The position numbers were made by a program, and so were the translations under genes. The notes under the pieces were generated by a model. The model was not told the DNA's origin and searched no databases. It saw only the letters and a program-made list of their open reading frames with translations. Of a DNA stretch of 53,857 nt, positions 28,624 through 53,857 are shown in pieces (positions within the stretch are counted from its first letter, which is position 1; each line of letters starts with the position of its first letter). Source of the stretch: Candidatus Jorgensenbacteria bacterium GW2011_GWB1_50_10 (GTDB taxonomy: Bacteria; Patescibacteriota; Minisyncoccia; UBA6257; GWB1-50-10); assembly GCA_001004105.1 (NCBI GenBank), contig LCQK01000002.1:141419-195275 (forward strand). Reading direction: 5' to 3'.

Positions 28624-28643
28624 ACTCTCCTAATTTTTGGTGG
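28624..28643 (-). repeat. Junction motif copy (CCACCAAAAATTAGGAGAGT)
   Basis: Starts 1 nt after the stop of the 87-aa membrane protein gene. It is the last copy before the AT-rich operon. Confidence 0.8.
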
Positions 28644-28644
28644 T

Positions 28645-28908: not shown

Positions 28909-28912
28909 AAAT

Positions 28913-29302: not shown

Positions 29303-29321
29303 CTTTTCAATTCTATTTGAA

Positions 29322-30026: not shown

Positions 30027-30031
30027 GATTT

Positions 30032-30448: not shown

Positions 30449-30463
30449 TTGGGTTGCGGCGGG

Positions 30464-31027
30464 TTATCTTCCCCTATGTGTAGCTATAGAAACAATTTTA
30501 AAAATATCTTCTCCTCTTTTTAAAGCTTCTAAAAGTCTTCGGAACATATATGCATCCGCCATATTAGTTTTTTCTTGAATCATTAATAATTTGGCCAGTA
30601 ATATTAGAAACTCTATTCTATACTCACCATACTGACTAATGCTTTGGTATTGTTTTATTTTATTTCCGTGCTTATAAAGAAGGTTTTTAATATCTAATAT
30701 TTTCTTTCTATCCGATTTACTTTTTATTGGAGTTGTCTTCTTCCATATATCTAGTAAGAAACCCAAAAATTTCTTTATTTTTCCTTTATCTGCGTGCATT
30801 TTAATTAGAAGATCAACGGCCCAATGAATGTGTTTTGGTGTTCTTATATTAGACCACTTTCCATTTTTTAATCCCTGGCGGTATTTTATTAAAATGTCAT
30901 ATTTACTTAAGCTGCCTTGATAAACTCCTACAATAATATTCTTTTCGGGAATAAAAATCCTGATCGGTTTGTGAGCCTTTCCTTCTTTGTTAAAAACCAT
31001 CTTTATTCCCGGGTCTTTTACGTTCAT
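30464..31027 (-). CDS. Hypothetical protein (positional candidate for the methyltransferase partner, e.g. endonuclease)
   Basis: 187 aa, Lys-rich and AT-rich. Its start lies 1 nt after the methyltransferase stop. I can find no defensible nuclease motif. Confidence 0.45.
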   Translation of the reverse strand: MNVKDPGIKMVFNKEGKAHKPIRIFIPEKNIIVGVYQGSLSKYDILIKYRQGLKNGKWSNIRTPKHIHWAVDLLIKMHADKGKIKKFLGFLLDIWKKTTPIKSKSDRKKILDIKNLLYKHGNKIKQYQSISQYGEYRIEFLILLAKLLMIQEKTNMADAYMFRRLLEALKRGEDIFKIVSIATHRGR

Positions 31028-31028
31028 A

Positions 31029-32153
31029 CTAATAGTTCATTATCACAAGCTCGCTGATTTTACCGCGTTTACTTCCATCGCAGTTGATAAATCTACTTGC
31101 ACTTACCGTTTCAATTCTGTACTTTTTGTATAAATCCTTTATAAATTTAGTATTAGAATTACTCAACATAACCTTGCAACCTTTTTCATCTAAAGCTCTA
31201 AAAATATCGGCCAATTTAGCTTGCTCTTTCTCGAGAAAATCCTCACTTGTATAAGTGGTAAATTTAGCGGTCTTAGTGAGTGGGTAATAAGGGGGGTCAA
31301 AATATATAAAATCATCTTTCTTTACCCTATCTATAATCTTCTCAAAAGACTCAGCATAAAGTTTTACATGCTTTAGAGCTTTACTGGTTGATCTTAAATT
31401 TTGCTCGTCTAGGATACCCGGATTTTTGTACTTCCCGGACGGCACATTAAACTCTCCTTTACTATTAACTCTATAAAGACCGTTAAAACCGGTTTTGTTT
31501 AGATATATAAAAGCTGCAGTTCGCTCAATCTTATTTAAAACATCGCTGTTATAATCGTCTCTAACTTGGTAATAGAACTTTTGGTCATGGTTATTTTTGT
31601 ATTCGTTTAAGACTTTAATAAGATTTTCTACATTATTCTTAATGACTATGTATGTGTTTATTAAGTCTCTATTAAGATCCGACAAAATTGCGCTCTCCGG
31701 CCGTAAATAAAAGAAAACTGCCCCGCCACCAACCATCGGTTCAAAATAGGTATTGTAAGTGTATCGTGGAGGAAAAAATCTAGCATATTGACTAAGTAAC
31801 TGATTCTTACCACCAGCCCATTTAACAAAGGGTTTAAGCTCATATTCTTTAGCACTATTGCCGTTCAATCTTCTAGCTAATTCAGAAGCGGCTCTAATTT
31901 GGACAGCTTTAGCTGAACCTATACCCCTAATTTTAGTTAGTTCTGGAACGGAGGCCTTAGATATATTTTCTAAACCTCTAAATTTGGCCCATAGTCTCTC
32001 AACCGTTACGGCAATAGATTCACCACGAGCGCCTTTCCCTAATAAGGCCATCAAAAGCTCCTTATCGCTAATATTATGAGTCCCTTTTCTAATAATCTTT
32101 TCCCTAGGTCGAAGTTCTAGTGGTAAATCTTTTATAGTGAAGGATTTAGCCAT
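31029..32153 (-). CDS. RadC N-terminal (HhH) domain fused to a Dam-type N6-adenine DNA methyltransferase
   Basis: Residues ~10-95, LRPREKIIRKG...ISDKELLMALLGKG...LTKIRGIGSAKAVQIRAASELARRL, resemble the RadC N-terminus without the JAB domain. These are followed by PFVKWAGGKNQLL, FEPMVGGGAVFF and the catalytic FDPPY. Confidence 0.75.
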   Translation of the reverse strand: MAKSFTIKDLPLELRPREKIIRKGTHNISDKELLMALLGKGARGESIAVTVERLWAKFRGLENISKASVPELTKIRGIGSAKAVQIRAASELARRLNGNSAKEYELKPFVKWAGGKNQLLSQYARFFPPRYTYNTYFEPMVGGGAVFFYLRPESAILSDLNRDLINTYIVIKNNVENLIKVLNEYKNNHDQKFYYQVRDDYNSDVLNKIERTAAFIYLNKTGFNGLYRVNSKGEFNVPSGKYKNPGILDEQNLRSTSKALKHVKLYAESFEKIIDRVKKDDFIYFDPPYYPLTKTAKFTTYTSEDFLEKEQAKLADIFRALDEKGCKVMLSNSNTKFIKDLYKKYRIETVSASRFINCDGSKRGKISELVIMNY

Positions 32154-32217
32154 GAGGGTTTAAATTATTACTCATAATTTTACCACAAATTCTGCCTCAT
32201 TTTTCGAGGGTTCTCTA

Positions 32218-40759: not shown

Positions 40760-41782
40760 TCAGGCAATTTTTATGGTTGAAAAACTGCCGAGCAGGTGCT
40801 TATATTTTTTGAAATTTTCAATAATCATGCCCGTCCCCCGCACAACGCAAGTGAAAGGTTCGTCGACGAGCTTCACTTCCACGCCGATTTCCTTCTTAAG
40901 CATTTCGGAAAGACCTCGAAGCTGACTGCCGCCGCCGCACATATAAATGCCGTTTTTGTAGACGTCGCCCACGAGCTCCGGCGGCGCGGCTTCAATCAAG
41001 TCCTTCACCCCCTCCACGATGAGTTTCAAAGGCCGGTGGAGCCAACCGCGAACCATGGTGTCTTTGATGGTCGCCTCCCGCGGCAGACCGCTCGTAACGT
41101 CCCGGCCGCGCACCATCACTTCCAGTTTCTCATTTTGGGGAATGGCCGAACCAACAGCGATTTTAATCTCTTCGGCGGTCGGCTCGCCGACGTTAAGTTT
41201 CAGCTCTTCCCTCACCGCTTTCATAATTTCACCATTTAAATAGTCGCCGGCGACTTTCAAGCGCCTGGAAACAACAATGCCGTTCATGGAAATGACGGCC
41301 ATATCGGTGGTGCCGGCGCCGATGTCCAAAACCAGATAGGCCGTGGGTTGATGGATGTCCAACTGGCTTCCCAGGGCAGCCGCGAGCGGCTGTTCCACGA
41401 GATACACTTCGTTCGCGCCCGCTTCTTTCAATAAATCTTCCACTGACTTCCGCTCCACCTCCGTGAGATTGGTCGGGACGGAGACCACCATCCGCGTGGA
41501 CCAAGACCAGGGAATGCGCTCATGCTTCAAAAAGCGCTGAATCATTTCTTTGGCAATGTCGAAATCGGCTATCACGCCGTTCGTAATCGGCCGGGAAACG
41601 GTGATGTGGGCCGGCGTCCGGGAAAACATCCGTTTCGCTTCCGCGCCGTAGGCGACGACGCGATTAGTGCGGTTGTTGAAAGCGGCGATGGAGGGCTCGC
41701 TGAACACCACGCCGTTCCCGCCCAAATAAACCTGAGTGGTGTCTGTTCCTAAATCAACGCCGATTTTTTTCTTGAATTTCAT
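40760..41782 (-). CDS. mreB: Rod shape-determining protein MreB
   Basis: 340 aa, an actin-like ATPase with GVDLGTDTT, DIGAGTTDMAVIS and GIYMCGGGSQLRGL. Confidence 0.95.
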   Translation of the reverse strand: MKFKKKIGVDLGTDTTQVYLGGNGVVFSEPSIAAFNNRTNRVVAYGAEAKRMFSRTPAHITVSRPITNGVIADFDIAKEMIQRFLKHERIPWSWSTRMVVSVPTNLTEVERKSVEDLLKEAGANEVYLVEQPLAAALGSQLDIHQPTAYLVLDIGAGTTDMAVISMNGIVVSRRLKVAGDYLNGEIMKAVREELKLNVGEPTAEEIKIAVGSAIPQNEKLEVMVRGRDVTSGLPREATIKDTMVRGWLHRPLKLIVEGVKDLIEAAPPELVGDVYKNGIYMCGGGSQLRGLSEMLKKEIGVEVKLVDEPFTCVVRGTGMIIENFKKYKHLLGSFSTIKIA

Positions 41783-43029
41783 TTTAGTGAGTCAATGAAT
41801 TCCTCAACCTTCATTAATTTTTCCTCTTTTTCGCCGCGCCTTTTCACTTCCACTTTCTCCTGCACCGTTGTTTTTTCGCTAACCACCAGCCGATAAGGAA
41901 TGCCGAGTAAGTCGGCGTCGGCGAATTTCTCGCCGGCGCTTGCCTCCCCGCGGTCGTCGTAGAGAACATCAACACCGGCTTTTACGAGTTTATTATATAG
42001 AGCATCCCCGGCTTTTTTCAATTCGGGCGTCGCCTCGCCAATGAGAAGGAGGTGCGCCTGAAAAGGGGCGATACTTTCCGGCCAGATGATGCCCCCTTCG
42101 TCGTGATAAACTTCCACCGCCGTTCCCATCACCCGGCCCAAGCCGATGCCGTAGGAGCCCATCACCACGTGCTCACTTTTGCCTTTCTTGTCCCGGTATT
42201 TCAGATTGAAGGCCTCGGCGTATTTGGTGCCGAGCGGGAAGATGTTCCCGACCTCAACGGCGTTCACCTTGTCCAAAATCCCACTCTCGCACTTGGGACA
42301 GTGTTCGCCCGCCTTATGCTCCCCCACTTCCCTATTTTCCGCAAAACCGCACAGGCGGCAGACCATAATCTCGTCCTCGCCGGCAACGAGCTCCACCTGA
42401 AATTCGTGGGTATTGGAAATGGTGAAATCGCCTCCGGCGGCCACTGTATAAAATGTTTTCAGGCCGCACCTTGAGAAGATTTTCTCGTAGGCCTTTTTGA
42501 CTTCCTCGTAATAGCGGAAAAGGTCCTTTTCCGACTCGTGAAAACTGTACAAATCCTTCATCAGGAACTCCCGGCCGCGCAGAAGCCCCGATTTCGCGCG
42601 TGCTTCGTTGCGGAATTTGGTCTGGAATTGGTAAGCGTAGAATGGCAAATCCTCGTAGGAAGCGATGTATTTGGAAGCGATTTCCGCCAAAACCTCTTCG
42701 TGAGTCCAGCCGAGGACGAATCCCGGAGTTTTTTCTTTCTTGCCTTTCACTTCAAACCCGATTTCCACGTCCCACCGGCCACTCTTGTCCCAGTATTCTT
42801 TGGGCACGAGCGCCGGCATGTTAAGCTCTTGCCCGCCAATGGCGTTCATCTCCTCCCGGATGATATTCATAATCTTTTCAATCACCCGCCACCCCAAAGG
42901 CAAAAAAGAATAGACGCCGGCCGAATTCTTATAAACAAAACCGCCCCGCGTTAAGAGCTTGGCGTTTACGCTCACCTCGTCTTTGGGGGCTTCTTTGAGG
43001 GTCTTCGTAAAAAGCTCGGACTGCCGCAT
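41779..43029 (-). CDS. proS: Prolyl-tRNA synthetase, short form lacking the INS editing domain
   Basis: 416 aa with a bacterial-type N-terminus (MRQSELFTKTLKEAP) and class II motifs. A CxxC...CxxC mini-insertion (C224, C227, C244, C247) sits where INS normally is. Confidence 0.85.
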   Translation of the reverse strand: MRQSELFTKTLKEAPKDEVSVNAKLLTRGGFVYKNSAGVYSFLPLGWRVIEKIMNIIREEMNAIGGQELNMPALVPKEYWDKSGRWDVEIGFEVKGKKEKTPGFVLGWTHEEVLAEIASKYIASYEDLPFYAYQFQTKFRNEARAKSGLLRGREFLMKDLYSFHESEKDLFRYYEEVKKAYEKIFSRCGLKTFYTVAAGGDFTISNTHEFQVELVAGEDEIMVCRLCGFAENREVGEHKAGEHCPKCESGILDKVNAVEVGNIFPLGTKYAEAFNLKYRDKKGKSEHVVMGSYGIGLGRVMGTAVEVYHDEGGIIWPESIAPFQAHLLLIGEATPELKKAGDALYNKLVKAGVDVLYDDRGEASAGEKFADADLLGIPYRLVVSEKTTVQEKVEVKRRGEKEEKLMKVEEFIDSLK

Positions 43030-43090
43030 TGATAATAGAATATCAAAAACGACGAGCGCTTACAAACTACCGGGCATCACTATAAAGCTC

Positions 43091-43128
43091 TTCCTCAATT
43101 ATGTACCATATGGTACATAATTGAGGAA
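43091..43128. promoter_or_regulatory. 38-bp perfect palindrome TTCCTCAATTATGTACCAT|ATGGTACATAATTGAGGAA (candidate operator or terminator)
   Basis: Checked base by base. Abuts the stop of the PaaX-like gene and lies 62-99 nt upstream of proS. A half-site-plus-centre copy, GTACCATATGATACAAGATTGAGGAA, lies at 43622-43647 upstream of the regulator. Confidence 0.55.
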
Positions 43129-43602
43129 CTATTCCAAAATCTCAACAAACATCGGCCGGCAAAATTTTTCCAGTTTATTCTCAACGATAAACTCCCAAAC
43201 TTCTGCCGAGAGCGGTTCGGGACCAATCCAAACACTTTTCTGAAAAGGATAAAAATTAAAATCGCGCAAAAGACGGCGTAGAGCAACACGCTTGGAATTC
43301 AATTTCACGGGGATGTCAAAACTTATAAGATACCACTTCCCTTCTTTGGGGATGGCTGTCATTTTATTTTTCATGTGCCTCCGAAAAAATCTTAATCCCT
43401 CCTTTGTTGGAGAAATTTTGCCGTCTTTTGTTTTCAAAAAACCGCGGGCAGTCAAACGCTCTAGACTTTGGCGAAGATATTTCTTGCGTTTGTATTGGTT
43501 GATAAATTCTTCCACTATTTCTAGAGCGATTTCCTTACCGTCGCGGAAGAATTCACTCAACTCCCGAATGTGTTTGTGAGCGTCGCGTGATGTTTTAGCC
43601 AT
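43129..43602 (-). CDS. PaaX-like winged-helix transcriptional regulator
   Basis: The N-terminal wHTH (LRQSLERLTARGFLKTKDGKISPTKEGLRF) and the WYLISFDIPVKLNSKRVALRRLLRDFNFYPFQKSVWIGP module are typical of the PaaX family. I prefer the ATG at 43602 over the TTG at 43617. Confidence 0.6.
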   Translation of the reverse strand: MAKTSRDAHKHIRELSEFFRDGKEIALEIVEEFINQYKRKKYLRQSLERLTARGFLKTKDGKISPTKEGLRFFRRHMKNKMTAIPKEGKWYLISFDIPVKLNSKRVALRRLLRDFNFYPFQKSVWIGPEPLSAEVWEFIVENKLEKFCRPMFVEILE

Positions 43603-43661
43603 ATTGTCTATCTTCAAAATTGTACCATATGATACAAGATTGAGGAAACAACCAAAATTAA

Positions 43662-44636
43662 TTATAATAACAATTGCTCTTTCTCTAAGCGGCGGGCGAG
43701 AGGCAAAAACTCCCTCACCAAAAACAGTGTGTAGCTTTCGGGCACGTACCTGATGGGCACATGGTACAAATCAACCCAAAGATGGCTGTAAATCGCAAAG
43801 AGAATAGATTGCTTCAAATAATTATTTTCTTTTTTGGAAAGTTTTCTTTTCTTGTTATATCCTTCCAGAAATTTCTTGATTAACGTCCCATCCAATCCTC
43901 TCTTGTTCAGGCAATTCCACATAATTGTTTTTCCCACATCAAATATAAAGGTGTCTACGTATGTGTTTCCGAAATCAATAACTCCGGTCAATTTATCGCC
44001 AACAAAAAGTTCGTTGTCGGGTTTGATATCCACGTGAATTGGGCCCCGGGGAAATCCCCTGGGCAGACGGTTATTTTCCACTCCCTGCCTTACCTCTTCA
44101 ACGACCGCCTTGAGCTCGGGATGGGTTTGCTTTTTGGCATAACGATACATCAACGCCATAACCTTAGGATTCAAATCATAAAACCTTCGTCTGCCCAACA
44201 TTCTTTTCCTGAACTTGCTGCCCAACCTGTGAAACTCGCCGACGAATTTACCGAGTTGGTACGCCATCCTTAGCGTAATCTTCCTGGGCTGACGGCCTTG
44301 TAAAAATCTGTACGCGCTCACTGCATATCCTTTGAAATTTTCAAGATATTTCCCGCGACTTGATCTAATATAATGCGGAACCGGCAAACGCTTTAAGTGC
44401 GTTAGAAAACTTATCTCGTGCAGGAGCGCGATTCTGGGAACGATTTTCATGTCCGCAACGACAACTTTCTTGCTTGATAAATTGTGCTTCGCAACGATAA
44501 ACCTGCCTTTCGGGGTTGTAATCACTACCTTAGGCGTTTGATAGCCCTGCCGGAAATAATCAATATCGTCTATTCTGCCGAGGTTAAACAAATCTGCGAT
44601 TCCCTCATATTCTTTTCTAGAGAAAAACTTGAGCAT
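43662..44636 (-). CDS. APH/CotS/homoserine-kinase-II-like phosphotransferase
   Basis: 324 aa with the kinase catalytic loop HVDIKPDNELF (HxDxxxxN) and VIDFGN (DFG-like). Starts 5 nt after the stop of the last Cys-rich paralogue. Confidence 0.7.
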   Translation of the reverse strand: MLKFFSRKEYEGIADLFNLGRIDDIDYFRQGYQTPKVVITTPKGRFIVAKHNLSSKKVVVADMKIVPRIALLHEISFLTHLKRLPVPHYIRSSRGKYLENFKGYAVSAYRFLQGRQPRKITLRMAYQLGKFVGEFHRLGSKFRKRMLGRRRFYDLNPKVMALMYRYAKKQTHPELKAVVEEVRQGVENNRLPRGFPRGPIHVDIKPDNELFVGDKLTGVIDFGNTYVDTFIFDVGKTIMWNCLNKRGLDGTLIKKFLEGYNKKRKLSKKENNYLKQSILFAIYSHLWVDLYHVPIRYVPESYTLFLVREFLPLARRLEKEQLLL

Positions 44637-44641
44637 GGATT

Positions 44642-46432
44642 TTATGCTACTTCAGCGTTATAGCATTGCTCGCAGTAGATAATTTCTGGGCGGTCCGGTG
44701 AATACGAGGTTTCAAATTCGTTGGGACAATGGCTGTTCTCGTGGAAGTGTTTGGTTGTATTCTGATAGATACTGTTTTCCGACCTCTCTCCGGCGCAGGT
44801 ACACTTACGATGCCAAAGTTTTAGGGGATTCCTCTGTTTCAAGCGCTGGTAATGCCTACAGTTAGGACATAACCTCGGGAGAGGCAGGTTCATCTTTCGG
44901 TAGAACTGGAGCTCGGGTTCGATGATTTTGAAGGCCTGGGTGCACTGTTCATTGCACTTGCCTCCGTGGGCGCAACTGATGGTCTCCTTGAGAATATCGT
45001 CTCCTACCTCCTTCACGTGGTCGGGGAGATCTTCTGGTTTTATGGTTATTTTGTAATCCTTGGTTTCCGGGTTTTTCCAACGGTAACCCTGAGTCAAAGC
45101 CTGTTCTTTGGTCAGCGGGAAGTACTCCTGGGCAATGGTCTCATTGTAGGCGAAGGGAGAGAGTTCTGGCGGGAAGAATTCGCCGTACTTATAGATCCGG
45201 CCCTTCACATCTACGTAAGGCCTATCATTCATGTGATCTACTATCTTAGGGACCAGCTTCTCATATTCTTCCTTGGTGTATTGCTTATTCAAGATGCAGT
45301 ATTGCTTGTTGCGTAATCCAGCGCAACCAAAGAGATTGGAGCAACCAGCACAATTCACAATATACCTAAGATTGGAAAGATTGATTTGCTTCCTACCGAG
45401 GTTTTTGGGTAGAGCCCGATAAGAAAATTGGACGTTGTACCCTCCGGCTTCCTCCAATTCGTAGCACAGCTCGCCTGCCGCGACCGAAATGTCAAATGAA
45501 TCCTTGGTCGGCATAAAGAGAATAAGTTGACAGTAGGCGCAGTTCTCGAGGTCACGACAAAGGAAAGAATTACGAACGTTCCTTGAATGGTCAATATAAT
45601 CGCCGGTAACGGAATAATTGTGCGTACCGTGCATAAAACGGGCGGGATATTTCATAATGTGGTTTTTAACTTCTTTCCTGACGTTATCTACAGCTACGTG
45701 GGAACCAAAAGAAAAATTCTTTTTGTACTTCTCGTACTCCTCCTTTGTATGCTGTTGGTTGAAAATGCAATATTGCTTGTGCCGCAAGTTCACGCACCCA
45801 AAACAATCACGGCAATCAAGTAAGCGGTAAGAAAAATAAATATTTGAACATTCTACGCAATCGACGCAAAAAAACGATTGGTAACATTTTTCGCAATCCA
45901 ACAACTCATAGGACAATTCCGAGCTTACCGTCTTCGTAGAATCGAAAACGCTCTTTGAATGAAGCAATTCCGTACAATATCCAGAATCCTCGGAAAATCC
46001 AGAGTTAAAAAGAAAATAACAATCTTTAAGATGCGATACGTTGAAACAATAATCACTCCTAACCGAAAAAAGATTCCATCCATGAGGCCAAGGGACAAGA
46101 TTCATAAGTTCTTGAATCTGTTCAAAGAAAGGGCGAGAAAAATCGTAATCCCGGCCATAAACCATGGGGTCCCAACTATCCGAAATCCAATAATCGTATT
46201 TGTATACAGGAAAAGGAACAGCCGGAGAATAGTTGGAAATAACCTTCTTTTCCGAACCGACAACGTCTCTCAAGTGGAGAGTGCGTAAATTACGAAAAAT
46301 CATTCTCCTTACCGCCCTGCACTCCGGGCACCACGTCGGCGGCGGGACTTTTACTTTCTCGTAAAAATCAAAATCCTCCGGCTCTATGACGAAGCTCTGC
46401 TTACAGTTTTGGCAGGTTTTTGTTTCGCTCAT
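44642..46432 (-). CDS. Cysteine-rich multi-zinc-ribbon paralogue, copy A
   Basis: 596 aa from MSETKTCQNCKQSF. Its ATG overlaps the TGA of copy B (ATGA at 46429-46432). The C-terminal ~110 aa are nearly identical to copy D. The second N-terminal ribbon has lost its four Cys. Confidence 0.8.
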   Translation of the reverse strand: MSETKTCQNCKQSFVIEPEDFDFYEKVKVPPPTWCPECRAVRRMIFRNLRTLHLRDVVGSEKKVISNYSPAVPFPVYKYDYWISDSWDPMVYGRDYDFSRPFFEQIQELMNLVPWPHGWNLFSVRSDYCFNVSHLKDCYFLFNSGFSEDSGYCTELLHSKSVFDSTKTVSSELSYELLDCEKCYQSFFCVDCVECSNIYFSYRLLDCRDCFGCVNLRHKQYCIFNQQHTKEEYEKYKKNFSFGSHVAVDNVRKEVKNHIMKYPARFMHGTHNYSVTGDYIDHSRNVRNSFLCRDLENCAYCQLILFMPTKDSFDISVAAGELCYELEEAGGYNVQFSYRALPKNLGRKQINLSNLRYIVNCAGCSNLFGCAGLRNKQYCILNKQYTKEEYEKLVPKIVDHMNDRPYVDVKGRIYKYGEFFPPELSPFAYNETIAQEYFPLTKEQALTQGYRWKNPETKDYKITIKPEDLPDHVKEVGDDILKETISCAHGGKCNEQCTQAFKIIEPELQFYRKMNLPLPRLCPNCRHYQRLKQRNPLKLWHRKCTCAGERSENSIYQNTTKHFHENSHCPNEFETSYSPDRPEIIYCEQCYNAEVA

Positions 46433-48132
46433 ACTACTTCCTGAAGATAACACTTCTTACACAAGATATAATCTGCTTCTTCTTTTGGATAATGGGTTTC
46501 AAATCCGGCGCCGCACTTGGAACATGTTCTTTGAAATACTCGTAGATTTTTTACCCATTTGCGGAATTTTTCGTTAATTCGACAGAAGGGACACTCACGC
46601 GGCAAGGGCAGGTTCATCTTTCGCAGAAATTCCAATTCCATCGGGATAATCTTAAAGCCCCGAGAGCAACTGCTGCAACCAATTACTTCTTTCGTGATAT
46701 TCTCTGGCGCGTCTTTAATATGATCAGGCAATTTGTCTGCAGGTTTCGTAATGCTATGGGAACGGCTATCCGCCTCTCGCCACCCCCAGCCCTTAGAAAG
46801 GGCCTCTTCTTTGGTGATGGGAATAAAAGTCTGAGCCAACGTCTCGCTGTAAACGAAGGGACTAATCTCAACTGGAAAAAATTCGCCGTAGGTATATTTT
46901 AAACCCTGTTTGTCAAAGTAAGGCGTGGAGTTCATGTGCTCTATAATTTTCGCGCGCAACTTTTTAAATTCTTCCTCCGAGTACTGTCTGTTTAGAATAC
47001 AGTAATTGCCTTTCTTCATTGAGACGCAACCGAAATGGTTTGAGCCACCGGTTGAGAGCTTGCAGTACTCGGCGTTTAAGAGGTTAATGCCGGATTCCTG
47101 GCAGAATCTTACGTTAGAAGCGTTCTCGCCAACCACGCACGATTCATAGGCGAGCTGCAAATTATTGCCCCAACTGGAAACATCATAGGCATCTTTTATA
47201 GGAGATTCGGGAAGAAGAAATAAATATTTAGAATCTTCTGCGCCGATAACCTCAAAACATTCTTTGCAATTCTTAGATTGGAAAACATAACTGCCGGTGG
47301 AATTAACCGACAAATCATCAAATTTCGGCCGCGGCGGAAATTTCTTCCAGTGTTCCCTCGCCAAACGTTTTACTTCCTGATAGGTCTTGTAAGAGCCGAG
47401 GTCCCATTTTTTAATTTCCTGAAAATAATCTTCTTTGGAGTAGGGCTTGTTGAATATATGATATTTCCTGTTGCGGAGGCTGGCCGAAGCGAAACAATTC
47501 TGACAATTACTGGAATCTTTCATAAAAGCGCAATCAATTGATTCCACCAAGTCTTCGGAACCGACACAACGGTTGTCCTTATAGGCGTTCGCCAAGTCAT
47601 AACAGAATTCGCATAGCTTCAGCATGGAGCAATCAAGAAGCATCCGGTTGTCCACGACCACGAGCCCATAGGCACAATCCTCATCGAAGTCGGCATAAAA
47701 AAGCATGTAGCAATTTTTGAGGTGACCAGCGTGATTGTTATAAGGAGAAGTCGCTGCCACTTGGAAATCAATAGAAAGTCCCAGAAGCGGCACTTCATGG
47801 AATAATTCGTTAAATTGTTCAAAAAACGGCCTATTGAAATTGTATTCTCTACCATACGAAAGCGGCTCCCATTTATCCGACCACCAGCACTGCGGGCAAT
47901 ACACCTTATAGGGGGAGTTGGGCGAGTACATAGAAATTTTTTCTTCGCCACAAAGGTCACACCTCCGACGGTAAAGCGTCATCAAATTAAAAACTGCTAA
48001 CCGCCGCTGAAAACGACATTTCGGGCAAAAAGTTGGCGGCGGGACGTTGATTTTCCTGTAGAAATCGAAATCTTCCGGCTCAATTATAAATTGCTTTTTA
48101 CAATTCTGACAGGTTTTGGTTTCAGGACTCAT
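46429..48132 (-). CDS. Cysteine-rich multi-zinc-ribbon paralogue, copy B
   Basis: 567 aa from MSPETKTCQNCKKQF. The track's extra 40 N-terminal residues overlap the RelE-like gene, so I rejected them. Confidence 0.8.
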   Translation of the reverse strand: MSPETKTCQNCKKQFIIEPEDFDFYRKINVPPPTFCPKCRFQRRLAVFNLMTLYRRRCDLCGEEKISMYSPNSPYKVYCPQCWWSDKWEPLSYGREYNFNRPFFEQFNELFHEVPLLGLSIDFQVAATSPYNNHAGHLKNCYMLFYADFDEDCAYGLVVVDNRMLLDCSMLKLCEFCYDLANAYKDNRCVGSEDLVESIDCAFMKDSSNCQNCFASASLRNRKYHIFNKPYSKEDYFQEIKKWDLGSYKTYQEVKRLAREHWKKFPPRPKFDDLSVNSTGSYVFQSKNCKECFEVIGAEDSKYLFLLPESPIKDAYDVSSWGNNLQLAYESCVVGENASNVRFCQESGINLLNAEYCKLSTGGSNHFGCVSMKKGNYCILNRQYSEEEFKKLRAKIIEHMNSTPYFDKQGLKYTYGEFFPVEISPFVYSETLAQTFIPITKEEALSKGWGWREADSRSHSITKPADKLPDHIKDAPENITKEVIGCSSCSRGFKIIPMELEFLRKMNLPLPRECPFCRINEKFRKWVKNLRVFQRTCSKCGAGFETHYPKEEADYILCKKCYLQEVV

Positions 48133-48133
48133 T

Positions 48134-48394
48134 CTATTTTCTTTTATAAATTTCTTTTCTGTGGCCGACGGCGAAGAAAACAGCATCTTTAGCGCGAAAA
48201 TAAAAAAGAACCCGGTAACGGCGGGTAATCCGGATTGAGTAAACGCCCTCAAACCCTTTCAGTTTCTTGACGTGAAGACGGGGGTCAAGCCAACTCTTGA
48301 TAAAAATCGCTTCTTGCTTTTTTAAAAGGCGTTTCGCCTCGGTGGGTAGTTTCTCAACGTCGTGAAGAAAGTCATCAGTTCTGTAGATGACCAT
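48134..48394 (-). CDS. RelE/ParE-family toxin
   Basis: 86 aa. HVKKLKGFEGVYSIRITRRYRVLFYFRAKDAVFFAVGHRKEIY is a typical RelE/ParE C-terminal pattern. Confidence 0.75.
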   Translation of the reverse strand: MVIYRTDDFLHDVEKLPTEAKRLLKKQEAIFIKSWLDPRLHVKKLKGFEGVYSIRITRRYRVLFYFRAKDAVFFAVGHRKEIYKRK

Positions 48395-48401
48395 GGCTTG
48401 T

Positions 48402-48590
48402 TTAAGCCCTGGGATAATTCCTGAGGGCTTTCTCCAGAGACTTCTTTATTGCGGCGGCATTCCGATAACCCTTGAGCCTTTCTTCCGGAATAGCTAAAAT
48501 CTTCAAAAGGATGGCTTTAACTTCTGAAACATCACGGCGGAGCACCTTTACTTCCTTATTAAGTTTCTTGACAAGAATTTGAGTAGACAT
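48402..48590 (-). CDS. Small helical protein, positional antitoxin candidate for the RelE-like toxin
   Basis: 62 aa from MSTQILVKKL. Its start overlaps the stop of the upstream HicB-like ORF (TAATG). I recognise no family. Confidence 0.45.
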   Translation of the reverse strand: MSTQILVKKLNKEVKVLRRDVSEVKAILLKILAIPEERLKGYRNAAAIKKSLEKALRNYPRA

Positions 48591-48796
48591 TAAAAGCACT
48601 GTATCACAATTCTTTCTTCACGGCCGCCTGACAATAACTTATTAGCTTCAAGAACCAGGAGGAGAGCCTCTTTAAGATTTGATTTTGTCTCTCTTAAAGT
48701 TTTGCCTTGAGTATTTACGCCGGGAATTTCCTCAACCCAACCCAAATACCATTTTCCTGACTTTTTATAAACTGCTGTAAATTGTCTCTTTGCCAT
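48590..48796 (-). CDS. HicB-like (UPF0150) antitoxin-fold protein, no adjacent HicA
   Basis: 68 aa. FTAVYKKSGKWYLGWVEEIPGVNTQGKTLRETKSNLKEALLLVLE matches the HicB N-terminal fold signature. Confidence 0.6.
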   Translation of the reverse strand: MAKRQFTAVYKKSGKWYLGWVEEIPGVNTQGKTLRETKSNLKEALLLVLEANKLLSGGREERIVIQCF

Positions 48797-48839
48797 AATT
48801 ACTTAATAATACCACGAATATTTCACAAAAATCAACCAA

Positions 48840-50513
48840 CTAAACTACTTCTCGTTGGTAACACTCTTCGCAATAAACAATCTCCGGCCTTTCGGGGGCG
48901 TAGGTGGTTTGAATCGGTTTGCTGCATTTGGCGCAGGTGCGCGAATACAATTTGAACGGCCCGCGGCGGCGGAGGCGGTCGGCATGGCGGCAGTAAAAAC
49001 ACTTGCGCGGAACGGGGATGAGCATTTTGCGGTAGAAATCCAATTCCGGCTTGATGATTCTGTAATTCCGGCCGCAGGAAACACAGGCAAGAGTTTCTTT
49101 TAAGATATTGTCTGTCACGTCCTTGATGTGGTCGGGAATTTGCTCCGATTTTAAGGTTTCCTTACCAGTCGTCATCTGCAAGTCGTCCTGCCAGCGGAAT
49201 CCTTGCTTCAACGCCTCTTCTTTAGTGAGCGGCATATTATCCTGGGCGATTGTTTCGTTATAGGCGAAGAAAGCAAGCTGAGGCGGCATGAATAAGCCGT
49301 ATAAATTCTTAGTTTTAAGCTCACTCACAATGTGTCCTCTTATTTTCTTGTACTCTTCCTCGCTGTATTGCTTGTTCAAAACCGCATATTTGGCCTTCCT
49401 CAACCCATCGCAACCGAAGCAATATTCCCCTCCTTGAAGGGCTATTGAATATTCAACGTCATGAGTATTAATACACCACCAGGAGCCGATGACGCGAGAC
49501 GAGGTTCCAACTGCCACCCCTTCAAGCAATAATTCGCTCTCCCTCCCGTGGCCGATAAGGTCATAACTGTCTTTAACGTTTTTTATGGAAAAAAGGTTTT
49601 TGGAATCTTCGCAAAATGATGCCTCAAAGCAGTTGAAACAATTTTTTGATTCAAAAATATAATCGCCGACAACGCGAACGCTTCTTAAATTACTATTTTC
49701 CCGGTGAGGAAATTTAAGCGAAAATTCATCAAATTTTTTGCGCATTTCTTCTGTTTTCTGATAACTCCCTAAAATATCTTCCACCCTGCGGTTCCATTCC
49801 TCTTTGTTTAATGGTTCATTAAAGAAATGGTAGGATTTGTGTCTTAAATTAACACATCCAAAACAATTCCGGCAACCAACGCAATTTAAAAGAAACCACG
49901 AATCAATGCAGTCAGGGCTGTTCTCTGCCTGGCAAACGCCATTGCTATTTTGGACATTCACGCCTTCATAAACACGCTCAGCTTTATCGGCGTAATAAGT
50001 GTCAAAAGTATCGCGGCTATTGGTGAGACCTCGCGAATAGGCGCAGTTTTCGTTGCGCGGACCGGAGTTAAAAATAAGATAGCAATCTTTGTTGGCGCCG
50101 GAAAAATTAGTCCAGTCGCTCCGAATATTCGGTCCCATGTCGGTGGAAGCGAATATGCCGGACTTAGGAACCTGAAGTATCAATTCAGAAAATTGCTCAA
50201 AAAACGGCCGCGAGAAATCGTAATCCCGGCCGTAAGAGAGCGGGTCCCACTTATCCGATAGCCAGCAATCGCGGCAATAGACAACATAAGGAGATTTGTG
50301 GTGGTACATCGCGACGGTGGATTTTCCGCAAAGTTCACACTTACGCGAGTAAAGATTCATCTCGTTTCTGAAAACCGCTCGCCTTCTAAATCGGCAATCG
50401 GGGCACAAAACCGGCGCCGGGACGCCCATTTTTTCGTAGAAACCCAAATCGTCCGGCGTGATTTCAAACTGGGCTTTGCAGTTTTTACAGGATTTTGTTT
50501 CTCTATTCATCAT
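48840..50513 (-). CDS. Cysteine-rich multi-zinc-ribbon paralogue, copy C
   Basis: 557 aa, MMNRETKSCKNCKAQFEITPDDLGFYEKMGVPAPVLCPDCR...YCEECYQREVV. Confidence 0.8.
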   Translation of the reverse strand: MMNRETKSCKNCKAQFEITPDDLGFYEKMGVPAPVLCPDCRFRRRAVFRNEMNLYSRKCELCGKSTVAMYHHKSPYVVYCRDCWLSDKWDPLSYGRDYDFSRPFFEQFSELILQVPKSGIFASTDMGPNIRSDWTNFSGANKDCYLIFNSGPRNENCAYSRGLTNSRDTFDTYYADKAERVYEGVNVQNSNGVCQAENSPDCIDSWFLLNCVGCRNCFGCVNLRHKSYHFFNEPLNKEEWNRRVEDILGSYQKTEEMRKKFDEFSLKFPHRENSNLRSVRVVGDYIFESKNCFNCFEASFCEDSKNLFSIKNVKDSYDLIGHGRESELLLEGVAVGTSSRVIGSWWCINTHDVEYSIALQGGEYCFGCDGLRKAKYAVLNKQYSEEEYKKIRGHIVSELKTKNLYGLFMPPQLAFFAYNETIAQDNMPLTKEEALKQGFRWQDDLQMTTGKETLKSEQIPDHIKDVTDNILKETLACVSCGRNYRIIKPELDFYRKMLIPVPRKCFYCRHADRLRRRGPFKLYSRTCAKCSKPIQTTYAPERPEIVYCEECYQREVV

Positions 50514-50537
50514 CTTAATTTGAGACAGTATGACGCG

Positions 50538-52325
50538 TCATACTACCTCGGCTTGATAACACTGTTCACAATAAACAATCTCCGGCCGCTCGGGAGCGTA
50601 GGAGGTCTCAAATTCGTTGGGGCAATGATTATCGCCGTGGAAATGCTGGGCGGTATTCTGATAGACGCTATTTTCTGATTTTTGCCCGGCGCAGGTACAC
50701 TGACGATGCCATAATTTGAGAGGATTTCTTTGTTTCAATCGCTCATAATGGCGGCAGTTGGGACATAACCTGGGGAGGGGCAGATTCATCTTCCGGTAGA
50801 ACTGGAGCTCCGGCTCAATGATTTTGAAGGCCTTGGTGCATTGTTCATTGCACTTCCCCTCGTGGGCACAGCCAATAGTTTCCTTAAGAATGCTCTCGTC
50901 TACGTCTTTGATGTGGTTAGGAAGGTTTGAATGTGTCAAGGATACCTTATAATCACGCTCTTTTGATTCTTGCCATTTATAACCTTTTGCCAAAGTCCGT
51001 TCCTTAGTAAGAGGAAAAATCTCAACGGCCGTTGTTTCGTTGTAAGCGAAAGGTGATAATTCCGGCGGGAAAAATTCGCCATACCGATATTCACGACCTT
51101 GTTTATCCTTATAAGGCAATTCGTTCATTTGCTCAATTATTTTTTCCCGGAGATTTTTATACTCGGCTTCACTATACTGCTTGTTCAAAATGCAAAATTG
51201 CTTATTCCTTAAACTGGCGCAACTAAAGAGGTTATTAGAGGCATAAGAAAGATTGGAGTACTCCGTATTATACGTAGCGTTGAAAGACAGAACACTCATT
51301 TTAATATCGCCCACCTCTTTCCCCGCAAGCAAAGTTTCGTAAACACGCTCGGCGGCATCGCCATATTCCGTGTAATCCCAACAATCCTTAACGGGTTTCG
51401 CGATAAGCCATAAACAATGTTTACAATTCTGCGATTCTATAGCCACGTATGAATGGAAAACATCGCGACAATGGTTTATATAATCTCCTGATACATTAGT
51501 ATTTTGTCTTCCATGGATGTACTTCTTTGGAATTTCCATAACCAACGCTTCGGCTCGCCCGGAAATATCACCAATATTCTTGAAGGAACCGATATCAAAC
51601 TTAACCAACTCAGCTTCATAATCTTCTTTTGAAAACGGCTGATTAAAAATGTGGTACTTCTTGTTCCTTAAACCAACGCAACCAAAACAGTTATCGCAAC
51701 CAATCAAATCACGCGAGAAGTATACGTTTTGGCAGCTCTCACAATCCACGGAAAAGAAAACGCGGGAACACTTACGACAGTTAACACAGCCATAAGCTAA
51801 CTCACACTGGTCAATCATGAGATTATCAAAGCAGTCTTTACTGCCTTCTACTTCCGTACCATAACAGCAACCCTCGTTGTAATCCGAATTAAAAATCAAG
51901 TAGCAATTTTTAAGATGACCGGCTTGATTCACATACTCACTATTAGTGAGGGTTAGATGAAGCGTGTTAAGAGCCGGTAGCGGCACTCTTCGGTGAAGTT
52001 CTCTAAATTGTTCAAAAAAAGAGCGTGAGAAATCATAGTCACGGCCATAAGCCAAAGAATCCCATTTATCCGACCACCAGCAAGGCGGACAATAAACCAC
52101 CTGATCTTTGTCGTCGGAATAAATTGAGAGCATGTCCTTGCCACATAAATCACATTTCCTCTTATACAAAGTTCTTTCGTTGCGCCATAAGAGGCGTCGC
52201 TCCAACCTGCACTCTGGGCACCACGTCGGCGGCGGGACGGAAATTTTCTTATAAAAATCAAAATCTTCCGGCTCAACCGTGAACTGATTTTTACAATTTT
52301 GACAGGTTTTTGTTTCTGAAGTCAT
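50538..52325 (-). CDS. Cysteine-rich multi-zinc-ribbon paralogue, copy D
   Basis: 595 aa with about 37 Cys by hand count. MTSETKTCQNCKNQFTVEPEDFDFYKKISVPPPTWCPECR...YCEQCYQAEVV. Its ATG overlaps the stop of the 97-aa ORF. Confidence 0.8.
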   Translation of the reverse strand: MTSETKTCQNCKNQFTVEPEDFDFYKKISVPPPTWCPECRLERRLLWRNERTLYKRKCDLCGKDMLSIYSDDKDQVVYCPPCWWSDKWDSLAYGRDYDFSRSFFEQFRELHRRVPLPALNTLHLTLTNSEYVNQAGHLKNCYLIFNSDYNEGCCYGTEVEGSKDCFDNLMIDQCELAYGCVNCRKCSRVFFSVDCESCQNVYFSRDLIGCDNCFGCVGLRNKKYHIFNQPFSKEDYEAELVKFDIGSFKNIGDISGRAEALVMEIPKKYIHGRQNTNVSGDYINHCRDVFHSYVAIESQNCKHCLWLIAKPVKDCWDYTEYGDAAERVYETLLAGKEVGDIKMSVLSFNATYNTEYSNLSYASNNLFSCASLRNKQFCILNKQYSEAEYKNLREKIIEQMNELPYKDKQGREYRYGEFFPPELSPFAYNETTAVEIFPLTKERTLAKGYKWQESKERDYKVSLTHSNLPNHIKDVDESILKETIGCAHEGKCNEQCTKAFKIIEPELQFYRKMNLPLPRLCPNCRHYERLKQRNPLKLWHRQCTCAGQKSENSVYQNTAQHFHGDNHCPNEFETSYAPERPEIVYCEQCYQAEVV

Positions 52326-52615
52326 CGAAAAATTGTGTCTTTGATTCGCTGGACCTCATCTTTGACCACGTCGCCGTCATAGTCGCCGCTGTGAGCGGTC
52401 ACACCTTCATAAATCGGCTTCTTCTGGTCAAGGTGAATGTTGAAAGTAATGATATCCTTATCATCTTTCACATAAATATGAAAACGCGGATAGTCGCCGC
52501 CCAAGGGACGGACGCAGTTCAATTCGCCTTGAGGCGTATATCCCAACGGCCGGTACCCCATCTTCCGTATCAAGTCCCGGAGATTATAACTTTTGTTGTA
52601 AATCTTGAAGGTCAT
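52322..52615 (-). CDS. Hypothetical 97-aa protein translationally coupled on both sides to Cys-rich paralogues
   Basis: ATGA overlaps at 52612-52615 and 52322-52325. The sequence contains YPRFHIYVKDD...IHLDQKKPIYEGVTAHSGDYDG. I recognise no family. Confidence 0.6.
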   Translation of the reverse strand: MTFKIYNKSYNLRDLIRKMGYRPLGYTPQGELNCVRPLGGDYPRFHIYVKDDKDIITFNIHLDQKKPIYEGVTAHSGDYDGDVVKDEVQRIKDTIFR

Positions 52616-53493
52616 GCTATTTCCACCTTATAACACTCCTCGCAATAGATAATCTCCGGCCTCTCAGGAGCGTAGGAGGTCTGAATTGGTCGGCTACACT
52701 TTTGACAGGAACGATTGTAAAGTCTCGGCGGATTAGTGCGCACAAAACGAGCATTGTGCCGACAGGTAGGACACTCTCGCGGCAGCGGGATTGAAAGGTT
52801 TTTCATAAGCGCGAGTTCCCCCGAAACAATGCAAAAGGCCTTTCCGCAAGAAGCGCAAGCGATTACTTCTTGGAGTATTGTATCCGGCGTTTCCGCAAGC
52901 GTATCGGGCATATCAACCCATTGCTTGGTAGCAGTATAAGGCGTGGCAGTAAATTCATGCCACTTGAATCCTGAAGCGAGTGATTCTTTCTCTGTTTTGG
53001 GAAAGTAAGCGTGGGCGAGGCTTTCGTTGTAAGCGAAGAGAGAAAGATTAATCGGTAAGAACTCTCCATATGACCAAATGCGCCCTTGAGGATCCCGATA
53101 CGGATTTCTTTCCATGTCCTTTTTAATTTGAGAAACAAGGCGCTCGTATTCCTCTTTTGGGTATCCCTTATTTAAAATGCAATAATGTTTCCTCTTTAAG
53201 CTGACGCACCCAAAAACGTGCTTGCAGGAAATAGCGTAAATAGAATATTCATTGTCCAAGGCGTCGGGCCAGCACTCAAAAGAAAATTTGACACCATTTG
53301 CTCCTTCCCCAACCACAGCGGCTTCATAAATTTTCTCCGCACCATTTCCCCATCCCGAATAGTCATAGCAGTCTCGGGCGTGGGGTACGCTCACAAACTG
53401 CGCATAACGGCTGTCTTCCGCGCCGGCTACCATGTAGGCGTCATGGGTGTTTTTTGATTCGTAGATATAATCGCCGGTTACCCTCACGTTCAA
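52612..53493 (-). pseudogene. Cysteine-rich paralogue, copy E (5'-truncated: only the C-terminal half is present)
   Basis: Homology to copies A-D begins at LNVRVTGDYIYESKN, which corresponds to about residue 275 of copy C, and runs to ...YCEECYKVEIA. No N-terminal ribbons are present, and only a TTG 'start' is available. Confidence 0.6.
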
Positions 53494-53857
53494 GGCGCTG
53501 CCTGTATAAACACGGCGGGGGGGTTTGTTCCAAAACCCCTTTTATTGCACCTATTATCTTAAGAAGTATTTCATGAATTGCCAGAGTTATTTCCTCTGAA
53601 GAAACCTCTATACTTTTTGGGAGTCCTGTTACAGAATCCCTACCTCTTATCTCAACTTTACTAACTTCAGATGGCTTCAGAAATATTGCTGATCCTATTT
53701 TCAGTTTAACTTCTTCAGTCATCTGATCACCAATTATCAGGTTATATTTTTTGCGGACATAGATTTGGATCGCCTCATCAATATTATTTCCCCCGACTCT
53801 TACAGAGTTGTGTACAACAACACCGCCCAAACATATAACTGCTGCTTCAGTTGTTCC
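53441..53857 (-). pseudogene. Second MreB/Mbl-like gene, fragment (5' end outside window, 3' truncated at ~53516)
   Basis: The frame reads GTTEAAVICLGGVVVHNSVRVGGNNIDEAIQIYVRKKYNLIIGDQMTEEVKLKIGSA...GVLEQTPP. Similarity is then lost exactly at a C7 run (plus-strand G7 at 53517-53523), and the frame runs into the copy E fragment. Confidence 0.6.

Follow-up and report, generated by a model that had tools for sequence, protein, structure and literature searches.

A widespread family of tandemly encoded, cysteine-rich Patescibacteria proteins with putative zinc ribbons, and its gene neighbourhood with a split VirB4/VirD4-type ATPase

Why does a bacterium with a reduced genome commit most of a 9-kb stretch to tandem copies of one large, cysteine-rich protein? 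The question is raised by a 53,857-nucleotide stretch of contig LCQK01000002.1 from Candidatus Jorgensenbacteria bacterium GW2011_GWB1_50_10 (the whole stretch being "the window" hereafter), toward the end of which lie five paralogues of a family labelled F here. Our analysis reveals that F is an unnamed, uncharacterised family without a detectable fold relative, that comparison of its sequences points to an ancient repertoire of paralogues shared across Patescibacteria lineages, and that F arrays in related genomes lie directly downstream of two genes, T1 and T2, encoding a split, membrane-anchored VirB4/VirD4-type ATPase.

Coordinates were taken from a listing of open reading frames (ORFs) and direct translation of the window. 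All F genes are on the minus strand, comprising four full-length paralogues, i.e., F1 (44642..46432; 596 aa, 34 Cys, subfamily B), F2 (46429..48132; 567 aa, 32 Cys, subfamily D), F3 (48840..50513; 557 aa, 30 Cys, subfamily G) and F4 (50538..52325; 595 aa, 37 Cys, subfamily B), and a partial fifth, F5 (52612..53535), which retains the C-terminal ~300 codons. The mechanical ORF call for F5 spans 52612-53493 (293 aa, 14 Cys), and its homology to the intact gene ends at 53535. The array order by subfamily is hence [fragment]-B-G-D-B. An earlier note, made from the window letters and their ORFs, had described this head-to-tail arrangement and these lengths correctly; its estimate of about 37 cysteines in the 595-aa copy is exact, and its "roughly 8 of 9 kb" corresponds to 7,839 of the 8,879 bp (88%) between 44642 and 53520. 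Alignment of the paralogues with MAFFT gives 41-55% identity of F2-F5 to F1; 50 columns are invariant, and cysteines account for many of these. The common terminal motifs recorded in the earlier note likewise recur in the copies, as ETK(T/S)CxNCK..F at the N-terminus and (Y/L)CxxCYxxE(V/I)(V/A) at the C-terminus.

Three ATGA overlaps (46429-46432, 52322-52325 and 52612-52615) had been taken to imply a single coupled transcript. All three are present in the window, but they indicate such a transcript only in part: direct coupling of one paralogue to the next holds for F2 and F1 only, the F2 stop overlapping the F1 start; the other two overlaps join a paralogue on either side to orf97 (52322..52615, minus strand), a conserved 97-aa protein unrelated to F that is encoded between F5 and F4. 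Scans for promoters and terminators yielded nothing better than shuffled sequence and are uninformative. Homologues of orf97 number 378 and are unnamed, the few labelled ones belonging to Patescibacteria lineages; orf97 abuts an F gene in four of five carrier sequences (the window and four of the 79 F-centred loci described below), always on the same strand.

To what family do these proteins belong? Scans with Pfam and NCBIfam returned only sub-threshold zinc-ribbon matches, restricted to the two ends of the copies (zf_Tbcl, zf_Tbcl_2/TIGR04272 and LIM). For PF13451 (zf_Tbcl), F1 scores 17.6 bits and F3 20.6 bits against a gathering threshold of 24, with F2, F4 and F5 unmatched, and a few homologues carry a precomputed match. 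PF23477 (zf_Tbcl_2) gives 22.1 bits for F3 and 15.6 for F5 against a cut-off of 27, TIGR04272 gives 18.6 and 10.2 bits for the same two copies against 36, and LIM (PF00412) reaches 16.1 bits against 22.9. By direct reading, the F3 C-terminus, C-AK-C-SKPIQTTYAPERPEIVY-C-EE-C, nonetheless has the literal CxxC-x17-CxxC spacing. The copies have no match to hexapeptide-repeat (Hexapep), Fer4 or Radical_SAM models and no CxxCxxCxxxCP motif of the 4Fe-4S ferredoxin/radical-SAM type. In PADLOC-DB v2, F3, F4 and orf97 match 0 families at E <= 0.1; PHROGs return only ribbon-sized matches to F, and sequence and profile searches of the PDB only weak LIM matches (best profile match E 0.0095, others >= 0.06). 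The Pfam, NCBIfam, PADLOC and PHROG scans took in orf97 as well as the F copies and yielded nothing beyond sub-threshold zinc ribbons. No family in Pfam, NCBIfam, PADLOC, PHROG or the PDB covers an F protein, in keeping with the earlier note, whose author could name no family.

The fold comparison that the earlier note had proposed was made with an AlphaFold2 (AF2) model of F4, built from a 68-sequence alignment (predicted local distance difference test score [pLDDT] 87.7, predicted template-modelling score 0.87). Foldseek found nothing at E <= 1e-3 in the PDB or in BFVD, a collection of viral protein structures. In the PDB, the best matches were left-handed beta-helix enzymes at E 0.01-1 with probability and template-modelling score (TM-score) both below 0.1 (best match E 0.011, probability 0.07, TM-score 0.07-0.1), values that give no ground for membership in that class; in BFVD, only zinc-ribbon matches of 40-66 residues appeared. 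The literature search likewise found no description of the F family, its Pfam/TIGR domains, DUF8128 or cysteine-rich/zinc-ribbon families of the candidate phyla radiation.

How, then, is an F protein built? Profile-profile alignment with hhalign shows two internal duplications: the N-terminal double-ribbon module (residues 4-86) aligns with the C-terminal one (482-593; probability 99.7%, E 2e-25), and the two beta-rich halves (132-243 and 280-396) align with each other (probability 99.9%, E 1e-36), with a negative control scoring 1%. Judged from these sequence profiles, the architecture is therefore a pseudo-symmetric A-B-B'-linker-A'. Module A is a putative double zinc module in which a zf_Tbcl-type treble-clef ribbon is followed by a CxxC-x17-CxxC ribbon in a LIM-like arrangement; domain B is beta-rich, composed of 12-15-residue rungs with CxxC knuckles, and each copy of it ends in the motif NCFGC..LR.K.Y.I.N..YSKEEY. 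In F1, the C-terminal module is long and carries an extra Cys/His insert, and all four cysteines of the second N-terminal ribbon are gone. A further observation is that P0255, a 731-aa representative of the family, bears an N-terminal extension of ~180 residues, the F match covering 184-705; this may reflect fusion to another domain and could offer a clue to function.

Conservation across 167 full-length copies follows this architecture. The cysteine quartets 8/11/36/39, 486/496/521/524 and 543/568/586/589 are 93-100% conserved, and the quartet 58/61/79/82 only 66-83%; core cysteines 210/213/216 and 369/378 are kept in 83-98% of members, the first three forming a C210-xx-C213-xx-C216 motif without a fourth Cys at +4. 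The CxxC pairs that recur every 12-15 residues along the rungs are retained in only 15-50% of members. Conservation is highest in the terminal modules and the two NCFGC..YSKEEY motifs, residues Y590 and E593 at the extreme C-terminus being at least 98% conserved, and lowest in rung regions 121-210 and 241-360. These cysteine patterns are consistent with the multi-zinc-ribbon character proposed in the earlier note, and no invariant constellation of His, Asp or Glu suggestive of catalysis is apparent among the copies, from which we infer a probably non-catalytic protein. F proteins are predicted to be soluble, with isoelectric points (pI) of 6.1-8.1 and no signal peptide, transmembrane or hydrophobic segment.

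Three known systems offer partial likenesses. Families of the zf_Tbcl, zf_Tbcl_2 and TIGR04272 types have the same cysteine spacing and flanking motifs as the F terminal modules, i.e., CxxC..F.I...D..FY.K...P.P..CPxCR, then CxxC-x17-CxxC with (Y/F)xPxxxxP(E)IVYC, and their weak hidden Markov model matches fall exactly on these segments. However, they account for ~190 of ~595 residues, all F scores lie below their cut-offs, and they are themselves uncharacterised "probable" zinc fingers, silent on function. LIM domains (CRP1, CRP2, MLP and PINCH; PDB 1ctl and 1b8t) share the double finger of two consecutive zinc knuckle pairs and give the top-ranking PDB sequence matches for the second ribbons of both termini, at a non-significant E of 0.0095-0.2. 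As protein-protein adaptors, they are consistent with an adaptor role for F; yet the LIM family is eukaryotic, with a Cys/His/Asp ligand pattern, and the likeness is one of type only. Left-handed beta-helices (LpxD, LpxA, GlmU and gamma-carbonic anhydrase) were the sole recurrent Foldseek matches to the centre of F and share short beta-strands at regular spacing. Their triple hexapeptides are 18 residues long, whereas rungs in F repeat every ~12-15 residues and carry CxxC knuckles; F shows no evident active-site residues of an acyltransferase or carbonic anhydrase, and no relationship is detectable.

Can the tandem copies be trusted? An assembly artefact of collapsed or duplicated repeats has a negligible probability and is already refuted for the array as a whole, since independent assemblies reproduce it at >= 99.9%. 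The exact orf97 protein is recorded on 17 contigs. One MEGAHIT contig from the ENA (L161; Rifle groundwater, 47.8 kb) equals window positions 42322-53535 at 99.99% and spans all five copies, and parts of the array also occur at 99.9-100% in the NCBI contig LCLN01000020.1 (L162), another ENA contig and two Logan contigs; dozens of other genomes have equivalent arrays. Confusion of copies by an assembler is ruled out by their low similarity, with 41-55% amino acid identity and a maximal DNA identity between copies of 65-83%, over short stretches only. Recent gene conversion between F1 and F4 was also considered and is not supported: their C-termini are 78-95% identical as protein, but only 70.6% as DNA, with third-position identity modestly raised. 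As an observation of its own, LCLN01000020.1 lacks 97 bp at window 49983-50079 inside F3, leaving ORFs of 143 and 373 aa, a gap that reflects either a deletion present in the population (pseudogenisation) or a mistake in assembly.

The one point that favours an artefact is confined to the outer edge of F5, where the junction at 53535/53536 resembles a chimeric join or variant. Here the window departs from F5 midway and enters part of a second MreB paralogue that has the same orientation (53536..53857, minus strand, cut at "...LEQTPP"); the switch lies inside ~20 nt common to F5 and the MreB paralogue, TTTTGGAACAAAC(C/A)CCCCCG. Five other contigs (L161-L165) match the window at 99.9-100% to exactly 53535 and then enter a full-length copy 5 of 570 aa with 34 Cys. 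The NCBI contig UY26_C0003 (295 kb; Ca. Jorgensenbacteria, GW2011 genomes) likewise carries a full-length copy 5, together with T2 and T1. The 90% cluster of F5 includes a 246-aa N-terminal half as a separate ORF in a sibling genome (UY55_C0003G0107) and a 291-aa C-terminal half, which is the window copy read from an internal GTG start. Pattern scans of metagenome and genome collections for further contigs with the 53535 junction gave 0 matches, and exact look-ups of the two half-F5 proteins returned no record of any. Because the other contigs read through 53535 into an intact gene, the truncation described in the earlier note stands for the window but is confined to this contig; it reflects either a chimeric join or a rearranged variant, and not a property of the family. 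In L161, from the organism of the window itself, the genes HARE, T1, o174, T2 and CutA lie immediately upstream of the full copy 5, the CutA stop overlapping the F5 start, so that the window lacks the T1/T2 module because of the junction, with the MreB fragment in its place.

How widespread is the family, and how did the array arise? A first search returned at least 7,781 significant matches to F, all "hypothetical", the named ones coming from Paceibacteria-type lineages and one Curtissbacteria member. The phyletic survey suggested in the earlier note was carried out with a profile run exhaustively against 1.84 billion 50%-identity representatives and detected 5,219, 3,783 and 2,229 F clusters at E <= 1e-3, 1e-10 and 1e-30, respectively; species-representative genomes contain at least 574 F relatives. 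Record titles name Patescibacteria lineages, save for generic "bacterium" labels and one contig (L011) labelled Gammaproteobacteria; many "Saccharibacteria" titles may themselves be generic labels from a large ENA catalogue of metagenome-assembled genomes. Among 2.9 million viral contigs, F is essentially missing, with 1 marginal partial match.

For gene-order comparisons, 79 F-centred loci were used, with another 80 loci fetched using T2 as query. At least two F copies lie on one strand in 48 of the 79, with up to 9 copies in 22 kb, consistent with the heavy investment by a reduced genome remarked upon in the earlier note; split or fragmentary copies are common. The same note's picture of a local fivefold expansion does not hold. 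Among copies from multi-copy loci, 93% find their closest counterpart in another genome, and median identity is 57% to other genomes versus 45% within the array; F3, for example, is 77% identical to a copy in locus L007 and ~42% to its neighbours in the window. By these sequence relationships, the window therefore appears to hold members of an ancient, pan-lineage paralogue repertoire, as opposed to the products of a recent fivefold expansion. Arrays combine, mosaic-like, members drawn from dozens of subfamilies; diverged subfamilies in tandem, along with frequent fragments, point to birth-and-death turnover. No fixed subfamily order, such as would suggest a hetero-complex, was found within arrays.

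What, then, are T1 and T2? T2 exceeds the Pfam gathering scores for T4SS-DNA_transf (34.5 vs. 20.1 bits), TrwB_AAD_bind (32.9 vs. 20.5) and TraG-D_C (26.2 vs. 22), passes the cut-off for DUF87 and has the Walker A sequence GKSGVGKS. It nevertheless scores far below the cut-offs of the NCBIfam equivalogs (TraD and CD1115), for which reason we class it, from these profile matches, as a distant member of the VirD4/TraD/TrwB/HerA-class superfamily and not as an orthologue of a characterised type IV coupling protein (T4CP), its UniRef name ([quoted passage not shown]) notwithstanding. T2 is soluble and has no transmembrane segment, so the N-terminal anchor that marks a T4CP is not found in the same polypeptide and comes from the separate T1 instead. 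Its matches to the PADLOC models for HerA and mad8 are weak, generic P-loop matches. Median identity of T2 across 101 loci is 79%, and in two genome pairs it exceeds that of ProRS (88.6% vs. 83.1% and 85.0% vs. 77.4%).

T1 belongs to DUF8128, has two to three N-terminal membrane helices and lacks a Walker A in all of the sequences inspected (0/70). In Foldseek, its AF2 model (pLDDT 84.1) matches TrwK/VirB4 of the R388 type IV secretion system (T4SS) at E 2e-4 with probability 0.96-1.00 over ~460 columns, the top match being 7o43_A (E 2.1e-4, probability 1.00, 463 columns, TMq 0.33), with 7o42, 8rtb and 8rtd similar; on this modelled fold, T1 most likely corresponds to the non-ATPase N-terminal half of VirB4. 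Two other descriptions were tried and rejected. A "pair of TraD-like ATPases" is excluded by the lack of a Walker A in T1 and of BLASTP similarity between T1 and T2; that same lack of similarity, together with a fold search that led to VirB4 instead, speaks against T1 as a degenerate T2 paralogue. The T1 and T2 domains occur in one ORF of ~795 aa, anchor included, in loci L041 (3163-5547), L063 (5121-7505) and L042, and both are spanned by the phage family phrog_5156 (824 aa; T1 at profile positions 76-215, T2 at 388-815). As they are fused in some genomes and in a phage family, T1 and T2 are the two halves of one ATPase, i.e., a split, membrane-anchored enzyme of the VirB4/VirD4 type. The same VirB4-like ATPase may hence be encoded by phages that infect these bacteria. 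Long T2 paralogues (~700-835 aa; L004 3872-6376, L010 4459-6564 and L024 11833-13995) are often found downstream of F arrays. They contain a bona fide TIGR04272 ribbon (48-53 bits vs. 36), of the same type as the last F ribbon, followed by a long low-complexity tail that is probably disordered.

The link between F and this ATPase lies in gene order. When neighbours were clustered around F genes, with T1 and T2 scored by separate profiles, a conserved order emerged: a HARE-HTH/sigma70-r4 protein, T1, o174, T2, sometimes CutA1, and then the F array. In the 80 T2-centred loci, HARE-HTH is present in 59, T1 in 64, o174 in 62 and F genes in 64, and CutA lies between T2 and the first F gene in 31. 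F genes are on the T2 strand in 63 of 63 loci scored for strand. Of the 60 loci with sufficient flanking sequence, 49 have an F gene that starts no more than 4 kb downstream of T2; in the control direction, an F gene lies within 5.5 kb upstream of T1 in 0 of 47. No mobile-element genes, no VirB6, VirB8 or other channel genes and no relaxase figure among the recurrent neighbours of these loci. F arrays sit among the core genes proS, mreB, dnaJ, frr and secDF, with conserved synteny to proS, mreB and secDF; the window array and the L099 array share one chromosomal slot, with PaaX-like, ProRS and MreB genes downstream at 72-77% identity.

Comparison with T4SS ATPases (VirD4/TrwB/TraD and VirB4/TrwK) brings out both kinship and departure. 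The module resembles them in the Pfam cut-offs passed by T2, the VirB4 fold of T1 and the VirB4-size fusions, and F arrays follow directly behind the ATPase, as partner genes often adjoin theirs. It differs in the division of the ATPase between two proteins, a membrane half that lacks a P-loop and a soluble half that has one, in the core-gene level of conservation of T2, unlike that of mobile-element genes, and in the lack of resemblance of F proteins to any known substrate, chaperone or adaptor of a T4SS. A 2025 survey counted 5,713 VirD4-like T4CP homologues in 2,918 Patescibacteria genomes, approximately two per genome, of which only 148 lie near virB4, the role of the others being left unexplained; their exaptation was "not ruled out", and a t4cp homologue is non-essential in Ca. 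Southlakia epibionticum (PMC12102498, Microb Genom 2025). The survey makes no mention of a zinc- or cysteine-rich partner family (0 occurrences of "zinc"). Linkage of F to the orphan T4SS-type ATPases of Patescibacteria appears to be undescribed in the searchable literature.

What might F do beside such an ATPase? Our preferred reading, which we put at somewhat under an even chance, is that F proteins are zinc-scaffolded cytoplasmic adaptors or clients of the T1 + T2 ATPase, the link being drawn from gene neighbourhood. F proteins would be non-enzymatic partners of a housekeeping membrane ATPase. All would dock on one and the same partner through their invariant terminal zinc modules, ribbons of the same type being present in long T2 paralogues, and the diversified beta-rung surfaces would allow each subfamily to recognise different macromolecular ligands (DNA, RNA or protein). 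Such ligands would pass to or from the translocase at the envelope of a cell that depends on exchange with a host. A more sweeping proposal, which we consider doubtful though possible, is that F arrays, T1/o174/T2 and HARE-HTH, sometimes with CutA and orf97, form an undescribed, Patescibacteria-specific macromolecule-handling apparatus; i.e., an exapted type-IV-secretion motor served by a repertoire of zinc-scaffolded receptors of new fold. A host-interaction role, raised in the earlier note, is possible through the conserved linkage to the T4SS-type ATPase module. Several points weigh against the adaptor/client reading: (i) the functional link derives solely from gene neighbourhood; (ii) T2 lies within 10 kb in only 24 of the 79 F-centred loci, most F genes being away from the ATPase; (iii) T1 and T2 were not found in the window itself; (iv) profiles of the F terminal modules gave one marginal match (E ~1e-3) among neighbouring proteins, and a "shared docking module" of the F and ATPase ribbons would be an analogy of type; (v) near-neutral pI values give no positive sign of nucleic-acid binding; and (vi) the zinc binding suggested by the cysteine patterns leaves an iron-sulfur site possible at CxxCxxC 210-216.

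With the present data, an adaptor role and a cargo role for F cannot be told apart. F proteins could be translocated by T1/o174/T2 as effectors, surface proteins or host-delivered proteins, the array constituting a substrate repertoire, much as substrate arrays lie behind EssC in type VII secretion loci and as T4SS effector sets are organised. The many paralogues, their same-strand position immediately downstream of a VirB4/VirD4-class ATPase, the lack of a Sec signal peptide (as in T4SS-type substrates) and a C-terminus conserved to its last residues all fit such a role, as does the episymbiotic life of these organisms (PMC12102498). We nonetheless judge it quite unlikely. Tightly folded multi-zinc proteins would make poor T4SS-type substrates, for which unfolding is needed. 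VirB6/VirB8 channel components are not among the recurrent neighbours, T2 conservation is of housekeeping grade, and F subfamilies are ancient and orthologous across lineages (57-77%), unlike lineage-specific, fast-evolving effectors. Somewhat better placed, yet still unlikely, is the suggestion that F proteins act autonomously in the cytoplasm as nucleic-acid-binding or regulatory zinc-finger proteins (e.g., RNA/DNA chaperones or specificity factors), with adjacency to the ATPase being mere synteny. Four or five zinc ribbons per protein, of types that commonly bind nucleic acids or proteins, would suit this role; 55 of the 79 F-centred loci have no T2 within 10 kb, arrays sit among core genes, and a HARE-HTH/sigma-r4 protein heads the cluster. 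Against mere synteny stand the directionality of the neighbourhood (49/60 vs. 0/47) on an invariably shared strand and the CutA/F5 overlap in L161, as expected of a shared operon, while neutral pI values and the lack of basic patches evident from sequence fit poorly with nucleic-acid binding.

The high cysteine content of F, 30-37 per full protein, also invites a metal-handling or redox role, in which F would buffer or store zinc or copper, or carry iron-sulfur centres, in concert with CutA. The conserved CxxCxxC at 210-216 and the periodic rung CxxC pairs agree with this idea, and CutA1 ("divalent ion tolerance") is the gene found between T2 and the first F in part of the T2-centred loci and overlapping F5 in L161. 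Most loci, however, lack CutA, and a well-folded protein of ~600 aa with many invariant non-Cys residues is unlike metallothionein-type buffers; with many rung cysteines dispensable and no ferredoxin/radical-SAM match or CxxCxxCxxxCP motif, we consider the role improbable. The earlier note suggested a possible conflict or host-interaction function, and an anti-phage or anti-host system (defence or offence), its paralogues diversified by an arms race, would indeed account for a multigene array with variable surface regions and toxin-antitoxin genes inserted within it. The weak HerA and mad8 matches of T2, the homology of phage family phrog_5156 to T1 and T2 and a nearby Cas2-like PaaX_M gene could be read in the same way. 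The conflict function is not supported and seems very improbable to us: neither F nor orf97 matches PADLOC, viral contigs yielded a single marginal match, and the array holds a conserved slot among housekeeping genes with no mobile-element genes among its recurrent neighbours. Moreover, its subfamilies are ancient and orthologous as opposed to recently expanded, the copies show no recent gene conversion or DNA-level similarity, and T2 is more conserved than ProRS.

Smaller features lie within and around the array. Three small toxin-antitoxin-like ORFs, forming two units on the same strand, split the array between F3 and F2 (48134-48796). The first is a ParE/RelE-like toxin ORF (48134..48394, minus strand; 86 aa; Pfam ParE_like 24.4 bits, ParE_toxin 22.9 bits), whose stop sits 1 nt upstream of the F2 start. 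Next to it is a 62-aa ORF (48402..48590, minus strand) without a family match, which is probably the antitoxin partner of the ParE-like gene, and then an antitoxin-type UPF0150/HicB-like ORF (48590..48796, minus strand; 68 aa; UPF0150 28.8 bits vs. a cut-off of 27.3). A perfect 16-nt palindrome, GTATGACGCGTCATAC (50528..50543), lies across the stop codon of F4, in the 24-nt spacer between F4 and F3, and could be a small hairpin or a protein-binding site. Directly downstream of F1, at 43129-43617 and 43662-44636, the window encodes an APH-family kinase, set off by a 5-nt gap, and a small winged-helix plus PaaX_M/Cas2-like protein; PaaX_M-type proteins adjoin F arrays in a few other loci (e.g., L010 1267-1818 and L099).

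Elsewhere in the window, a complete MreB gene (40760-41782) lies beside ProRS, so that the organism has two MreB paralogues; the second is directly upstream of an F gene in several relatives (L051, L054 and L060). A stretch at ~27600-32200 has a GC content of 0.33-0.43, compared to ~0.48 elsewhere. It encodes a Fic/DOC protein (27678-28331), two ORFs without family matches (29322-30026 and 30464-31027) and a D12-class N6-adenine DNA methyltransferase fused to UPF0758_N/HhH (31029-32153), and looks like an acquired restriction-modification-type island.

Ultimately, F and its gene module are assembled from parts of known kinds, namely zinc ribbons and an ATPase of the VirB4/VirD4 class, and the proposed function of F is read from context. 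Patescibacteria make up a large share of bacterial diversity, and most of their lineage-specific proteins have no known role. Within this group, F is among the larger unnamed families, with thousands of 50%-identity clusters and a central domain for which Pfam and the PDB offer no detectable relative. As many as nine copies of 1.7 kb lie within ~22 kb among the related loci sampled, a considerable outlay for a reduced genome. Even if the ATPase link should prove spurious, F merits domain definition as a duplicated zinc module combined with a duplicated beta-rung domain. The directional F/ATPase neighbourhood provides a handle on the "orphan" VirD4-like ATPases left unexplained by the 2025 survey (PMC12102498), and raises the hypothesis that the ATPase has been exapted, with F proteins as its partners. 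A compact gene set (HARE, T1, o174, T2, CutA, F and orf97) is thereby put forward for structural and genetic work in those few Patescibacteria that can be cultivated. If true, the proposed macromolecule-handling apparatus would explain the role of thousands of orphan T4CP homologues in these episymbionts.

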